From: Alphaproteobacteria bacterium
Lineage (GTDB): Bacteria; Pseudomonadota; Alphaproteobacteria; UBA7985
Length of the DNA stretch: 64,000 nt
Direction of reading: 5' to 3'
Assembly (NCBI GenBank): GCA_965662775.1
Contig: CBFIIW010000003.1
Location: forward strand, 16,491-80,490
Shown here: positions 14,796 to 42,782 of the stretch, in pieces
Position numbering within the stretch: position 1 is the stretch's first letter
How the letters are laid out: every line of letters begins with the position of its first letter
Made by a program: the position numbers and the translations under genes
The notes under the pieces: model-generated
Told to the model about the DNA's origin: nothing
The model's database searches: none
What the model saw: only the letters and a program-made list of their open reading frames with translations

Positions 14796-14871
<76 letters not shown>

Positions 14872-35968: not shown

Positions 35969-36091
35969 CTTTATTGGAGATAAGACTAGATTTTTTAATT
36001 AAAAAAAGACATCCTGATTTCAGTTCATACAATCTGAAATAGTATTATGTTTGCAGGGAGTTCAGGGGCTCGAAATCGCGAAGAGGCAAGT

Positions 36092-38500
36092 ATGTTTAAG
36101 GTCCGTCTAAAGCTGTTGTTTTTAAAACCAACGCAGCAGCGACGGTTATTGCCGGAAAGTGACTGTCTAGGCCGCTGGTTGAGCTTGCTATCATTTGTCG
36201 TGCTGGCGTTCTTGCCCCTGCGAGCTGCCGGCGAAACGGCCGACACGCGGACAGTCGGTGCCGAAGTTGGGCCAAGCGCTGCCCTCAGCTCGACCGAGGT
36301 TGCGGCTTTACTTGAGCAGGTACAGCAGCATCCGATTTCTCTGTTCCTTTCACTGCCCGTCACTGCGGATACCTTTATCGTTAAGGCAGCTGATGACGAG
36401 GGGGCCGATCAGGCGGAGGCTTTTGAGATCACCGCGCCGAACGTAAAACTGGGTGAGCGGGCATTGGGTGACCTGGTTTTCAACGCCGTTGCCCACGATA
36501 ACGGTCTATTGGTGAGCATGGATCTTTTGCCTCTGCTCAGCGGATATTTCGAAGGAATAGACAGCACGATCGACGCCAATGCGCTCAATCTGAAACTCGT
36601 CATCGACCAAGGCTCGACGCATTTCTCGCAATTGTCCCTCGAGATGCATGGCTTTCGCCTAACGCATGCCGACGGCACGCCGGAACGCAGCGTCCTCAGT
36701 TTAGATCACCTCAACTTTGCTATCGATGATGCTGACGGGCAGGTACTTATTGAGACATCGTTTGACGTGCAGGGACTGTCACTCATCATCGATGGTAAAC
36801 CCGTTATTGAACTGGATAGCCTTCAAGGCTCGTTCCAGTCTCCCCGAGCGCTGGGGAAATTCCTGCACGAAGAGCTCAATCATGGCGTGAAGCTTGGCTT
36901 GGCAAGTCTTGCTGGTCTGGCCGATCCAGTGGACATTATTCCAGACCTGCTGGAGCGCTGGGCCCCGATGTTTGAAATGGAACCAGTGGCCCAACAAAGC
37001 ACTCTGAGCATGGGTCCGCTGTCAATTTATACAAACGGATCGAAGGTCAAATGGCACCTTGAGGGCCTGAGCGCGCGGGGTGACTTCGACCCAGTGGCAA
37101 GCGAAGCCCGAACCGAAATCCAGCTCGCCAAACTGCGAACTGATCTCATCGACGTCGAAGCCGACAAAAACGTTACGCTTCTATACTGGGACGGTGCCGA
37201 AGTCACCTCGCTGCTCCGGCACAAGCCCGGAAAAGACAACCGCTTTATCGCTGACATCTTGCGCGCGACCGCTGCAGATCTGCGCGTTGTCTATGCTGAA
37301 GCTGAGGATGAGGCCGGACGCGTTCTTGGGCTGATCGCGGTGATCGGGCATCATGGCAAAGATCTGATTGATGGCGTCATCAGCCGTCAGGATCGGAACT
37401 GGCAGGAAACGACAATAAGCAGCGTAAATGCTGACTTTTCGTCTGTGGCTATGCCTCTGCGAGCCGGACTAGAGCAAATAACGATCACTTCGGATCTCGA
37501 TTTCAGTACCGGTACGGACGTACAATCGATATCTCTTTCCCTGCAAGGCGTTGAGATCGATGGGCCGGAAGCGGGGTGGTCCGTGACACTCGGTGAACAT
37601 CGATACGAAACTCAAGTTACGGGCTTGTTGACCGCATTTCGGGGTCGGCTGAATTCGCTTGCCAGCGGTGAGATCACGATGGGAGATTTTGTCCGCGTTG
37701 GGCTAGCCGTATACCTGCCAGCGTTTTCGATTTCCTTCGATGATTTGGCGGTGCAGAGTAAGGTGCCTGAACGTGATGCTAACTTTGATTTGCGGCTTGA
37801 TCGGGTGGAACTGGCCTTCGATGTGAACAACCCGCTGACCGACGATGCGCGACTAGGGCTACGCTTTGAGCAGTCTGGGGTAAACTTGGCATTGGAAGGA
37901 GAATTTAATATCGATTCTTCTATACTAGATCTAGCGCTGGGTAGGGACGGCGAACCAGGATTGCTACCCAACGACATTCACCTCGAAGTCGCACTGGACG
38001 CTATTTCCATGGGCCAGCTTCTGGCCGTTGCCGACACCATCACGTTGCCGCTCGATGAAGCGGAGGACATATCGGAGGTGTTTGAAGAGCGATTGGGACT
38101 GTATGGGGTTGCTCTGCTTTCGCCGTTCCTAAGTGCGCCGCCGAACTTGGTGGTCTCCCCGTCCTACATACGTGGCGGGCTGGTCGAAGCGGAAGCAAAA
38201 GGCAGTTTTGCTATTTCGCCGTTGAGCCCACCGACCTTCGCGGAAGGGCAAACCGAAATCCGCGTTACCGGCCTCGGCGCGTTAACGCAACTGGCACAAG
38301 AACAGTCCGCTGCCCTCAATGCGATAGGCACAGATCAGGCGCAGGCGTCGATCCAATTGTTGTCGCAGGTTATTGGCCTTGCCATGGTCGCCAGCAGCCT
38401 TGGTGTGCCTGAAGCCGATGGCGATGTGCTGAGCTTTGTGCTGGAGGCGTCATCAGGTAGCCCGCTGACCATAAACGGGTTACCGCTCGACATGAATTGA
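36092..38500 (+). CDS. large secreted hypothetical protein (~800 aa), paralog-like partner of the upstream gene
   Basis: The start is probably MFKVRLKLLF (36092; the ORF-track M at 36047 is also possible). It has an N-terminal hydrophobic signal or anchor (WLSLLSFVVLAFLPLRAAGE). No known domain recognised. The C-terminal LTINGLPLDMN resembles the upstream protein. Confidence 0.6.
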   Translation: MFKVRLKLLFLKPTQQRRLLPESDCLGRWLSLLSFVVLAFLPLRAAGETADTRTVGAEVGPSAALSSTEVAALLEQVQQHPISLFLSLPVTADTFIVKAADDEGADQAEAFEITAPNVKLGERALGDLVFNAVAHDNGLLVSMDLLPLLSGYFEGIDSTIDANALNLKLVIDQGSTHFSQLSLEMHGFRLTHADGTPERSVLSLDHLNFAIDDADGQVLIETSFDVQGLSLIIDGKPVIELDSLQGSFQSPRALGKFLHEELNHGVKLGLASLAGLADPVDIIPDLLERWAPMFEMEPVAQQSTLSMGPLSIYTNGSKVKWHLEGLSARGDFDPVASEARTEIQLAKLRTDLIDVEADKNVTLLYWDGAEVTSLLRHKPGKDNRFIADILRATAADLRVVYAEAEDEAGRVLGLIAVIGHHGKDLIDGVISRQDRNWQETTISSVNADFSSVAMPLRAGLEQITITSDLDFSTGTDVQSISLSLQGVEIDGPEAGWSVTLGEHRYETQVTGLLTAFRGRLNSLASGEITMGDFVRVGLAVYLPAFSISFDDLAVQSKVPERDANFDLRLDRVELAFDVNNPLTDDARLGLRFEQSGVNLALEGEFNIDSSILDLALGRDGEPGLLPNDIHLEVALDAISMGQLLAVADTITLPLDEAEDISEVFEERLGLYGVALLSPFLSAPPNLVVSPSYIRGGLVEAEAKGSFAISPLSPPTFAEGQTEIRVTGLGALTQLAQEQSAALNAIGTDQAQASIQLLSQVIGLAMVASSLGVPEADGDVLSFVLEASSGSPLTINGLPLDMN

Positions 38501-39890: not shown

Positions 39891-40463
39891 TCAGTCGCGA
39901 GAGGCTCCGGGCACCCAAAGAACGTCAGACGTGCCGTCGTCGTTGCAAATCCGTGCGAGGACGAACATCAGATCCGATAGTCGGTTCAGGTAACGGATGG
40001 CCTCGGGGTTGATATCAACCTTGTCGCCCAATTCGACGGTCAGCCGCTCGGCGCGGCGAACCACTGTCCGGCTGAGGTGAAATTGTGTGGCTGCTGCGCT
40101 TCCTCCAGGCAGAATGAATGAAGTCAGCGGTTGCAGCCGCGCGTTGTAGTTGTCGATGTCGGTTTCGAGCTTTTCAACCTGCCCCTCGGTCATCCGCAGC
40201 GGCTCGTAGGAGAGTTCAGCATCCAGCGGCGTCGCTAAATCTGCGCCCAAATCGAACATGTCATTTTGGACCCGAGCGATGATCCGATCGATGTCGGGCC
40301 AGGGGTCGAGCGTCAAACGCACCATGCCAAGCACGGCGTTCGCTTCATCAACGGTGCCGTAAGCTTCGACCCGCAGGTCGTATTTGGCAACCCGAGTTCC
40401 TGTCGACAGGCTGGTTTTGCCCTTGTCGCCGCCCTTCGTATAAATACGCGTCAGCTCAACCAC
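39891..40463 (-). CDS. ATP:cob(I)alamin adenosyltransferase, PduO-type
   Basis: Family motif LTRIYTKGGDKGKTSL and length ~190 aa. A GTG start at 40463 lies 2 bp after the stop of the upstream small membrane-protein gene. The longer ORF-track start at 40529 overlaps that gene. Confidence 0.8.
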   Translation of the reverse strand: MVELTRIYTKGGDKGKTSLSTGTRVAKYDLRVEAYGTVDEANAVLGMVRLTLDPWPDIDRIIARVQNDMFDLGADLATPLDAELSYEPLRMTEGQVEKLETDIDNYNARLQPLTSFILPGGSAAATQFHLSRTVVRRAERLTVELGDKVDINPEAIRYLNRLSDLMFVLARICNDDGTSDVLWVPGASRD

Positions 40464-40465
40464 GG

Positions 40466-40669
40466 TCAGTTGCCGATCCCACCGGTGAAAAATAGCAGCA
40501 GCAGCGAGATCACGGTTCCGGCCTGACACACTGTCCGGGCCCGCATCAGCAGATTACCGTACTTGTCGTTGAAGATGCCGCCACGGCCCATTGCAAAGGC
40601 CCCGACCAGCATGGAGACCAGTGTTCCGATCAGGAAGACACCGGTTAAAATCAAAAATATTGTGTTCAT
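40466..40669 (-). CDS. small two-TM membrane protein (67 aa)
   Basis: Two hydrophobic helices (IFLILTGVFLIGTLVSMLVGAF and AGTVISLLLLFFTGGI). Translationally coupled to the PduO-type gene. Confidence 0.5.
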   Translation of the reverse strand: MNTIFLILTGVFLIGTLVSMLVGAFAMGRGGIFNDKYGNLLMRARTVCQAGTVISLLLLFFTGGIGN

Positions 40670-40810
40670 GACAACTCAAGTGGTGTGTGCAGTCGTAAAG
40701 TCAGCCGCTGGCAGAAAAGAAAGTCGAAAGCTGCGGCAATCGACCCCGTAACCGAGACCTACTTCCCGGTTTTTGCGACAGGGAGAAGGGTTTTTGTGCT
40801 TCCCGTCGGG

Positions 40811-41464
40811 TTACTGACCGACCGGAATTAGAGTGAAACTGTCGTAGTGGTCGACCGTGATCCATATTGCACTATCGTCGGTCCGGGCGCGGTCATAAAC
40901 GATGCGCGCTGCGCCGCGAAAGCCTTGGACATAATCAAGATCTGCGACCGCGTAGCTGTTTGCGGGCCGAGCGGGGAGTAAGCCTTCGCGGTTGCCGAAG
41001 ATATCCCCCCCCACTGCGCCGTCGGGGTCGATATCATCGATTGTTTGCCCCGATGATTTCCAGCCTAAATCTCGGGCTTGTGCCTTGGTCATGTAACAGT
41101 CAGGCAATCGCCCTTCACGCTGCAGAAAGGTGGTGACTTGCGCGAAGGCGTAGGGGAAATCTAGCCCTTGGGCCAGTCCGAAGGCAGTGCGAGCCTCGAC
41201 CACCGGGCCGCCTATTTCAAGATCGTGACCGCAGACCTCGGCTGCGGCTGCGGCCTCCTCGAAGCGGGTGAGATCAGTCTCCGTCAAGGCGAGCGTTGCT
41301 TGACGACCGGTATCCTGTGGCAGAAAGGCTGGCAGCAGAACAAACAGCACAAAGCCAAAAACCGCCGCCAGCAGCGCAGCGCCACCGGCTAAGCTGACCA
41401 GTCGATGCGGCAAGGGTCGGTTCAACATCTGGCGGTTCTCCTCTGGCACAATCCGTGGTTTCAT
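40811..41464 (-). CDS. barnase-family (microbial RNase N1/T1/Sa superfamily) ribonuclease with an N-terminal membrane anchor or signal peptide
   Basis: The C-terminal ~110 aa align to Bacillus barnase: AQVTTFLQREGRLPDCYMTKAQARDLGW vs AQVINTFDGVADYLQTYHKLPDNYITKSEAQALGW, and GGDIFGNREGLLP...YVQGFRGAARIVYDRA...ITVDHYDSFTLI vs GGDIFSNREGKLP...YTSGFRNSDRILYSSD...KTTDHYQTFTKI. All the catalytic residues (Lys27, Glu73, Arg83, Arg87, His102) are conserved. The N-terminus has a hydrophobic helix LAGGAALLAAVFGFVLFVLLPAF. Confidence 0.8.
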   Translation of the reverse strand: MKPRIVPEENRQMLNRPLPHRLVSLAGGAALLAAVFGFVLFVLLPAFLPQDTGRQATLALTETDLTRFEEAAAAAEVCGHDLEIGGPVVEARTAFGLAQGLDFPYAFAQVTTFLQREGRLPDCYMTKAQARDLGWKSSGQTIDDIDPDGAVGGDIFGNREGLLPARPANSYAVADLDYVQGFRGAARIVYDRARTDDSAIWITVDHYDSFTLIPVGQ

Positions 41465-41543: not shown

Positions 41544-42782
41544 ATGGATCAACTGCCTGTTTCACCGCTCAAGCCTGCTGACATGCCGGCGCTTCCTGTC
41601 CTGTCGGGATTACGGGTTGCGACCGGAAATTCCGGCACGCGGTACCAGGGACGGAACGATGTCACCCTGTTTGTACTGCCGGAAAATACGGCTGTGGCTG
41701 GGGTTTTCACCCGATCAAAATGCCCAAGCGCGCCCGTGGACTGGTGTCGCAGCGTGTTGAAAGGCGAAGCTGGCGCTCAGGGTGCCCGAGCGTTGCTCAT
41801 CAATGCGGGTAACGCCAATGCCTTTACCGGTGCGGTCGGTGCACATGCTTGCACGCATACGGCCGGGGCAGTGGCTCAGGTGTTGGGCTGCAAGCCCGAA
41901 GCCGTTCTGCTGTCCTCCACCGGCGTGATTGGCGAGCCGCTGGAGGCTGAGGCCATCGCCGCGGCGGCACAGCAACTCGCCAAGGTAGCCACTCCTGCGC
42001 CGCTAGAAGCGGCCGCTGCCGCCATCGCGACCACCGATACGTTTGCCAAGTGGGCGCGGTCCGAAGCCAGTTGCGCCGACGGGGCAACCGTGTCTGTGGT
42101 GGGCATTGCCAAAGGCTCGGGCATGATCGCGCCGGATATGGCGACCATGCTTGGCTACGTGTTCGTTGATGCTACGCTTGAAACTGCCTGGCTGCAGGCT
42201 GTGCTGAGTCGAGTCACCGACCAGACCTTTAACGCCATGACCGTCGATAGTGATACTTCGACCAGCGACACAGTGCTGGCTTTCGGTCTCGGCAGCGGCA
42301 GGTCCGTTGGACCGTCGGCCGATCTCGACGCCATTGAAGCTGCCATTTTCAGCGTCTGTGACCAGCTTGCGGAGCAGATTGCGCGTGATGGCGAAGGAGC
42401 CAGCAAGTTGATTACCATCACTGTCGAAGGGGCGGACAGTGACGCTGCAGCGCGGGTGATCGGGCTGTCCATTGCCAATTCACCGCTGGTCAAGACCGCC
42501 ATTGCCGGTGAAGACGCCAACTGGGGCCGCGTGGTTATGGCAGTCGGCAAGGCTGGGGAAGCCGCAGACCGTGACCAGCTCGCCATCTGGTTCGGTCCGC
42601 ATCAGGTTGCCCGCAACGGTCTGCGTGATCCGGGTTACAGCGAAGATGCAGTCTCCGCTTACATGACAGCCGATGAAATCGATGTCCGCGTCGCACTCGG
42701 CCTAGGAAGCGGACAGGCGCGGGTGCGCACCTGCGACCTGACCCATGGTTACATCAGTATCAATGCGGACTATCGGTCATGA
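41544..42782 (+). CDS. argJ: bifunctional ornithine acetyltransferase/N-acetylglutamate synthase ArgJ
   Basis: ArgJ pattern including the autoproteolytic ATML site (MIAPDMATMLGYV). The start is taken at MDQLPVS. Confidence 0.9.
   Translation: MDQLPVSPLKPADMPALPVLSGLRVATGNSGTRYQGRNDVTLFVLPENTAVAGVFTRSKCPSAPVDWCRSVLKGEAGAQGARALLINAGNANAFTGAVGAHACTHTAGAVAQVLGCKPEAVLLSSTGVIGEPLEAEAIAAAAQQLAKVATPAPLEAAAAAIATTDTFAKWARSEASCADGATVSVVGIAKGSGMIAPDMATMLGYVFVDATLETAWLQAVLSRVTDQTFNAMTVDSDTSTSDTVLAFGLGSGRSVGPSADLDAIEAAIFSVCDQLAEQIARDGEGASKLITITVEGADSDAAARVIGLSIANSPLVKTAIAGEDANWGRVVMAVGKAGEAADRDQLAIWFGPHQVARNGLRDPGYSEDAVSAYMTADEIDVRVALGLGSGQARVRTCDLTHGYISINADYRS

Follow-up and report, generated by a model that had tools for sequence, protein, structure and literature searches.

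Within a 64,000-nucleotide stretch of contig CBFIIW010000003.1 from an alphaproteobacterial assembly (GCA_965662775.1), hereafter the window, we analyzed a gene whose product is a homolog of barnase, in which the catalytic general base Glu73 is replaced by valine and beside which the gene of the inhibitor barstar is absent. By both sequence and fold the protein is a member of the barnase family, and it lacks the catalytic glutamate of that family. The locus is probably a disarmed, vertically inherited barnase-barstar pair, changed by the replacement of Glu73 by Val and the deletion of barstar, whose remaining partner would now be a periplasmic binder or a very slow ribonuclease (RNase). The gene, its conserved domain and the two catalytic positions lie as follows:

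40811..41428, minus strand: barnase-like gene, 205 amino acids; the longest open reading frame (ORF) reaches 41464, but translation probably begins at its second ATG (41428).
40814..41158, minus strand: barnase-fold domain, residues 91-205 (phmmer, PF00545, Foldseek and the ratio of nonsynonymous to synonymous substitution rates, dN/dS).
40946..40948, minus strand: Val161, codon GTC, at the site of the barnase general base Glu73 (HMMER, MAFFT and hmmalign alignments).
40847..40849, minus strand: His194, codon CAC, at the site of the barnase general acid His102, kept within a DHY motif (alignments and sequence).

Barnase and barstar serve as a textbook model of how enzymes catalyze, how proteins fold and how two proteins recognize each other with ultra-tight affinity. 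Barnase from Bacillus amyloliquefaciens and binase from B. pumilus/intermedius are extracellular guanyl-specific RNases of the N1/T1/barnase family (PF00545). An initial annotation, made from the sequence alone, had recognized a barnase homolog in the C-terminal domain of the window protein and proposed a check against the PF00545 profile; this Pfam profile indeed matched, scoring 48.1 bits where the cut-off is 24 (E=1.8e-12). A phmmer search of PDB sequences retrieved wild-type barnase at E=5e-23, residues 107-213 of the long-ORF translation aligning to barnase residues 7-109 with a single four-residue insertion and approximately 42-44% identity over 107 residues. The AlphaFold2 (AF2) model, built with 89 homologs, reached a mean predicted local distance difference test score (pLDDT) of 90.4, and its top Foldseek matches in the PDB were barnase and binase, with template modeling (TM) scores (target) of 0.83-0.89 and root-mean-square deviations (rmsd) of 1.6-2.1 Å, the best being barnase (TM 0.89, rmsd 1.6 Å), hence the barnase alpha+beta fold. 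The window protein thus shares with barnase and binase the fold, the FxNREG guanine loop, Lys27, Arg83, Arg87, His102, Tyr103 and an N-terminal export signal. It differs from barnase by Val in place of Glu73, by its Gram-negative alphaproteobacterial host and by the absence of barstar, as well as by an additional structured N-terminal extension of about 45 residues with a probable disulfide and a long hydrophobic segment, probably an uncleaved anchor.

The general base Glu73 of barnase is the equivalent of Glu58 in RNase T1 and Glu54 in RNase Sa. Its column was read in the HMMER alignment, in a MAFFT alignment with 28 homologs and in an hmmalign mapping. Barnase Trp71-Arg72-Glu73-Ala74-Asp75 aligns to Tyr-Ala-Val-Ala-Asp in the window protein, in which Lys27, Asp54, Phe56, Asn58, Arg59, Glu60, Arg83, Arg87, His102 and Tyr103 are kept, giving the signature K D F N R E [V] R R H Y, identical to barnase apart from position 73; the general-base glutamate of the family is therefore missing and the general acid present. 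The initial annotation had considered the protein catalytically intact, taking the glutamate of its REG motif for the general base. This motif corresponds to barnase Arg59-Glu60-Gly61 in the guanine-recognition loop, and a disruption of the catalytic Glu or His, which that annotation had itself named as evidence against its proposal, is found as valine at position 73; the picture of an intact orphan toxin thus arose from a mis-assigned catalytic residue. Its placement of His102 (DHY), Lys27, Arg83 and Arg87 agrees with the alignments.

The substitution is shared by the members of one clade. The Val clade comprises the window, locus L092 (99% identical, marine metagenome), L004, L009 and L012 (a 'Rhodospirillaceae bacterium' metagenome-assembled genome, or MAG; JAYQIC010000007.1). 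The key barnase columns were mapped over a set of 92 loci, 88 of which encode Glu73, and among the first 120 homologs listed the Val clade alone is devoid of it. The GTC codon is common to four independent assemblies (window, L004, L009 and L012), protein P0001 encoded by L092 likewise has Val73, and eight protein clusters, together about 200 member sequences, carry it. In eight relatives with Glu73 the codon is GAA, two nucleotide changes away from GTC, and it is GAG in the more distant L010. Several arginines of the barnase domain are lost as well; this hint of a charge shift proved not to be diagnostic, as the net charge varies over overlapping ranges in the Val clade and the Glu clade.

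The two residues central to barnase catalysis are the general base Glu73 and the general acid His102 (PMC9321962; roles also in PMC12475213), and from the Glu73Val replacement a strong reduction of guanyl-specific endoribonuclease activity is predicted. Valine cannot abstract the 2'-OH proton, so that transesterification would be abolished or become slower by several orders of magnitude, and the binding of RNA and guanine would stay intact. The protein resembles in this respect engineered Glu73 mutants of barnase (E73W, E73A, E73Q and others), which also have a non-carboxylate at position 73 and an otherwise intact active site, one of them, E73W, being in use as an enzymatically inactive, non-toxic form (PMC6439198). 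Unlike these mutants, the window variant is natural, fixed and maintained by selection over a long divergence, with the inhibitor gene also lost. The literature searched offers qualitative statements and no usable kcat values for Glu73 mutants, and reports disagree on how non-toxic the engineered E73A is.

The second half of the argument comes from the neighborhood. Glu73 orthologs (P0008-P0014, 52-60% identity; loci L001-L003, L005-L008 and L013-L018) lie in the same gene order as the window gene, namely NUDIX/GNAT, argJ, RNase, (barstar), HIG_1_N, PduO and AFG1 ATPase, and carry directly after the RNase gene a barstar gene of 93-95 amino acids (PF01337, 40.6 bits against a cut-off of 23.4), which overlaps the RNase stop codon in L001-L003 and begins within 3 nucleotides of it in L005-L008. 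At the five Val73 loci, the place between RNase and HIG_1_N is taken by a non-coding gap of 141-170 nucleotides, in the window:

40670..40810, minus strand: 141-nucleotide intergenic gap at the barstar slot of the Glu73 orthologs (synteny comparison).

An iterated barstar profile was built for this comparison; across the 92-locus set, a barstar lies within 300 nucleotides at 83 of the 88 Glu73 loci and at none of the four Val73 loci, and the five Glu73 loci with no barstar within 4 kb are all from Firmicutes. The more distant syntenic locus L010, from a TARA assembly, combines Glu73 with a downstream ORF of 106 amino acids. This ORF (L010:6570-6890; also L011:3272-3592) overlaps the end of the Glu73 RNase gene and is without a Pfam match; it aligns with the syntenic barstars, including a C-terminal RDDLT, and is detected by the lineage profile, and to judge from this alignment it is a divergent barstar missed by PF01337. 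In the window, a tblastn search found no barstar within 1 kb of the gene or anywhere in the 64 kb, in line with the initial annotation, which had noted none nearby and suggested such a search.

Simple barnase-barstar gene pairs are widespread (PMC3482391), and the chromosomal pairs of P0008-P0014 at L001-L008, in which the toxin gene precedes the immunity gene, are the closest comparison: the window gene is orthologous to them (55-60% identity) and shares their neighborhood, N-terminal extension and cysteine pair, and it differs in being without Glu73, without the 93-95 amino acid barstar and probably without the AxA-type cleavable signal that most of those listed have. Because all outgroups have both Glu73 and barstar, the pair is the ancestral state and the window lineage is derived. 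The embedding among housekeeping genes, which the initial annotation had found unusual, is not particular to this gene, a group of marine alphaproteobacterial MAGs having the same argJ-RNase-(barstar)-HIG-PduO order. That annotation had also supposed that export may make an immunity protein unnecessary; however, the exported Glu73 syntenic orthologs still carry barstar after the RNase, and export alone is therefore insufficient to make barstar dispensable in this group.

The gap itself was inspected for remains of the inhibitor gene. A MAFFT alignment hinted at the 3' end of barstar, a candidate that we rejected, Smith-Waterman scores against shuffled sequences giving p values mostly of 0.2-0.8. 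Two small ORFs (40685-40831, plus strand; 40701-40865, minus strand) are without a Pfam match and were rejected as non-coding; the gap ORF that is open in L004 and L012 is broken by a TAG in the window, and substitutions fall at all codon positions. As a separate observation, about 110 nucleotides of the gap (window 40670-40780, minus strand; L004:3265-3373; L009:4530-4634; L012:4665-4774) are approximately 80% conserved among the Val-clade loci while synonymous sites are saturated. RNAalifold draws them as a possible long, imperfect hairpin (AAGNAGGTCTCGG...GACTTTCTT) with three compensatory pairs among four sequences and no Rfam match.

The Val73 gene is under purifying selection and is not a decaying pseudogene. 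Whole-gene dN/dS (Nei-Gojobori) ranges from 0.08 to 0.13 within the Val clade (0.13 for L004 versus L009, at a dS of 0.41), compared with 0.10-0.13 within the Glu clade and 0.10 for argJ; for the barnase domain the values are 0.04-0.09 (Val clade) versus 0.06-0.11 (Glu clade). Between Val-clade members dS extends from 0.4 to >1.4, and from 0.47 up to saturation in the barnase domain. As the synonymous divergence of the window from L004 exceeds 1, Val73 has long been kept under constraint. Pairwise dN ratios to argJ had hinted that the RNase evolved faster in the Val lineage; Tajima relative-rate tests against the outgroup L010 did not bear this out, the unique changes numbering 12-16 versus 12-18 (p>0.4). 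The loss of an essential catalytic residue, fixed in the clade, and the purifying selection that continued after it are features that the gene shares with pseudoenzymes, catalytically dead homologs kept for another role.

Where the protein acts can be approached through its N-terminal part, which contains the following elements:

41324..41410, minus strand: N-terminal hydrophobic helix, residues ~7-35, predicted export signal (AF2 helix 7-35).
41159..41287, minus strand: structured N-terminal extension, residues 48-90, two helices, containing Cys66 (AF2).
41231-41233, minus strand: Cys66, in the N-terminal extension.
41096-41098, minus strand: Cys111, at barnase position 23, four residues before Lys27.

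The hydrophobic helix had been noticed in the initial annotation, and the AF2 model reproduces it. Most Glu-clade orthologs listed show a textbook Sec signal, with a 17-residue hydrophobic region (h-region) followed by AQA, AAA or AHA and the mature part. The window protein has instead a hydrophobic stretch of about 27 residues that offers no convincing AxA cleavage site in the usual position, the h-region of the Val clade being about 10 residues longer than that of the Glu clade; the small-x-small motif (ARA/VQA/AQA) is followed by Pro at +1 in L004, L009 and L012, and in the window it lies at a shifted position. The segment would export the protein and probably persists as an uncleaved signal-anchor in the inner membrane. 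The extension consists of helices 50-62 and 75-86 (pLDDT >95), the former carrying more acidic character in the Val clade than in Glu-clade proteins. Within the clade, Cys66 and Cys111 never vary; more broadly, a Cys at barnase position 23 occurs together with an upstream Cys in 22 of 24 homologs, the two exceptions being truncated fragments, and both are jointly absent in 89 homologs. This co-occurrence suggests a Cys66-Cys111 disulfide tying the extension to the barnase domain near the active-site Lys27, which in turn suggests an extracytoplasmic location.

The mechanism we propose starts from a chromosomal pair in which a guanyl-specific RNase would have been secreted and its inhibitor, the product of the next gene downstream, would have stayed in the cytoplasm. 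The role of barstar is to neutralize RNase that folds in the cytoplasm prior to export. In the window lineage Glu73 was replaced by Val and the barstar gene deleted, and we infer that the events came in this order: once the RNase was disarmed and its self-toxicity gone, barstar would have become dispensable, hence no inhibitor is visible. Such a disarmed enzyme is the simplest explanation of the absent inhibitor, rather than a toxin that is intact and unusual. Because the binding site, the export signal and purifying selection are all retained, the present role is most likely that of a membrane-tethered periplasmic protein that would bind RNA or guanine nucleotides, or at most act as a very slow RNase.

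Other homologs without Glu73 put the association between the two losses in a broader context. When the barnase domain was searched against 1.84 billion representatives, 1366 matches were obtained at E<=1e-3, and position 73 was checked in the best 150, among which a few other single-domain proteins have Ile73, Ser73 or Ala73. The Ile73 lineage (P0247; L098:2504-3007, L099 and L100, from JGI metagenomes) has the order RNase-HIG_1_N-PduO and no barstar; an unannotated ORF of 100 amino acids upstream of it (L098:2188-2490) matches neither Pfam nor the barstar profile. The Ser73 lineage (P0151; L094/L095) has no barstar in contigs of 2.2-2.8 kb, and the contig of a second Ser73 protein, P0124, is only 677 bp long and uninformative for context. 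Like the window protein, these homologs and the two Ala73 proteins (P0232 and P0139) are exported and keep His102 and the Arg residues. Unlike it, they belong to separate lineages (38-54% identity) in which Asp54 or Arg59 is also replaced (Asp54Tyr with Ile73, Asp54Ser with Ser73, Arg59Phe with Ala73). An adjacent barstar is absent in three of the five non-Glu lineages versus five of the 88 Glu loci (Fisher p=0.004, a purely descriptive value, the loci being phylogenetically non-independent), and the association of Glu73 loss with barstar loss is real but not absolute.

From these lineages a more specific version can be drawn, which we regard as possible and put forward tentatively: the Val73 protein would be a non-catalytic barnase exapted as an inner-membrane-tethered periplasmic module binding RNA or guanine nucleotides, the N-terminal extension possibly serving as a built-in partner that contacts or occludes the active-site face. 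The same would have recurred across the Val, Ile and Ser lineages of the alphaproteobacterial RNase-HIG_1_N-PduO type, all of which are without the general base and without an adjacent barstar and would nevertheless have their binding site maintained by selection. Two side observations concern the same set of homologs. Tandem barnase domains, two or three in number, occur in P0022-P0024, P0121-P0123, P0127, P0131 and P0138; several of them have a domain with Gly, Arg, Ser or Tyr in place of His102, and one domain of P0123 also shows Glu73Val; the altered domains are possibly inactive repeat copies. The metagenomic P0006 (126 amino acids) matches the Glu clade in its N-terminal part (LAFGEAQGLRFPYAFAQVTTYLWLIGELPDCYMTK) and the Val clade, including Val73, in the remainder, and would be an assembly chimera or else the product of recombination between these clades.

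Several points weigh against a disarmed pair with a binding role. In one report, E. coli clones of E73A barnase remained hard to obtain and the E73A/H102A double mutant kept some RNA-degrading activity in cells (PMC12475213), and the Val73 enzyme may accordingly hold residual activity. The five Val loci form one clade and count as one evolutionary event, and the Ala73 proteins break the pattern: in P0232 (L096:4001-4931) the RNase is immediately followed by an unambiguous PF01337 barstar, and P0139 (L097:2285-2883) is followed by a barstar-like ORF starting at the contig end, a probable case of barstar retention. The barstar search of the window genome spans 64 kb, and a copy may exist elsewhere. 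In L012 an in-frame TAG (TGG->TAG, L012:4364-4366) interrupts the RNase-like gene at the invariant Trp equivalent to barnase Trp35, a hint that the gene may be dispensable; this copy also carries Asp101Asn, and the stop may reflect either a real local pseudogenization or an error of the pilon-polished long-read assembly.

The best-surviving alternative, although an unlikely one, is that of the initial annotation, in which a fully active barnase-type RNase is exported or tethered, needs no inhibitor and works as a scavenging nuclease or an antibacterial effector. Its proponents could point to the export segment and probable disulfide, which point to a location outside the cytoplasm, to the integrity of every key residue except Glu73, to the five Firmicutes Glu73 loci that likewise have no adjacent barstar, and to the possibility that E73A barnase stays toxic (PMC12475213). 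However, the general base is valine and no alternative acidic residue has been consistently gained nearby, exported orthologs that do have Glu73 keep barstar at the very same locus, and the conserved housekeeping synteny offers no secretion-system, polymorphic-toxin or mobile-element context; nothing that would support an effector role was found. About as improbable is an inhibitor that persists elsewhere in the genome or has diverged beyond recognition, with an RNase still active enough to need it. The coverage of 64 kb of the genome, the five Glu73 loci (of 88) with no barstar within 4 kb and the L010 barstar already invisible to Pfam speak in its favor. Yet the lineage profile, which does detect the divergent L010 type, returned nothing better than E=0.55 in the six frames of the 64 kb window (hmmsearch --max), the ancestral slot is empty at all Val loci, and a relocation combined with the loss of Glu73 is less parsimonious than plain loss.

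We consider it very improbable that the gene is a pseudogene in the making, inactivated, deprived of barstar and merely not yet decayed. The stop codon and D101N of L012, as well as fragmentary or frameshifted protein calls (P0005, P0007 and P0025), would fit such a course, but the stop in L012 may stem from faulty long-read assembly, the key binding residues are all intact in the window, L004, L009, L092 and P0003, dN/dS stays at 0.04-0.13 over the whole range of dS with a constraint equal to that on the Glu orthologs and argJ, and no rate asymmetry relative to the Glu clade is seen. That Val73 is a sequencing or assembly artefact can practically be dismissed: no point supports it, and the shared GTC codon in independent assemblies and the eight Val73 clusters refute it.

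The intact ORF at 40811-41464 (minus strand) was confirmed in the window from the ORF list. The true start is likely the second ATG, at 41428, giving 205 amino acids: a GAGGAG lies 9 nucleotides upstream of it, the close relatives P0001-P0004 are called as proteins of 204-205 amino acids with the N-terminus MLNRPL, and all orthologs start with MLNRPL or MQTRPL. The flanking genes correspond to the small two-transmembrane protein, PduO-type adenosyltransferase and argJ of the initial annotation:

40466..40669, minus strand: HIG_1_N-like protein with two transmembrane segments, 67 amino acids, downstream of the RNase-like gene (PF04588, E=6.5e-4, below the gathering cut-off).
39891..40463, minus strand: PduO-type cobalamin adenosyltransferase (PF01923, E=1.4e-62; 190-amino-acid gene call in the near-identical locus L092).
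41544..42782, plus strand: argJ, divergent from the RNase-like gene (PF01960, E=8e-131; 412-amino-acid gene call in L092).

The HIG_1_N position is kept at all orthologous loci in the synteny comparison. No promoter emerged when the locus was scanned for sigma-70 sites, and terminator-like matches were rejected, being located within the coding region. Further away, an ORF of 817 amino acids without a Pfam match (36047-38500, plus strand) is a conserved protein of unknown function, a gene of 762-763 amino acids, also without Pfam matches, occupying the same place beside the AFG1 ATPase in L001, L005 and L007. Scanning the window with Rfam gave a single match that reaches the gathering threshold, a tRNA gene (14799-14871, minus strand).

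The barnase family, barnase-barstar pairs and engineered Glu73 mutants are known; the natural, fixed and selected Val73 protein without barstar is a variation on these. No description of natural barnase pseudoenzymes was found in the literature searched, which is weak evidence of absence. The locus amounts to a natural experiment in which the general base and the inhibitor gene were lost within a conserved synteny while the fold and the RNA-binding residues are still strongly selected. If our interpretation is true, it would show a toxin/immunity pair being disarmed and the toxin scaffold reused, would offer naturally non-toxic barnase scaffolds and would point to an as yet unknown periplasmic role of barnase-like proteins in marine alphaproteobacteria.

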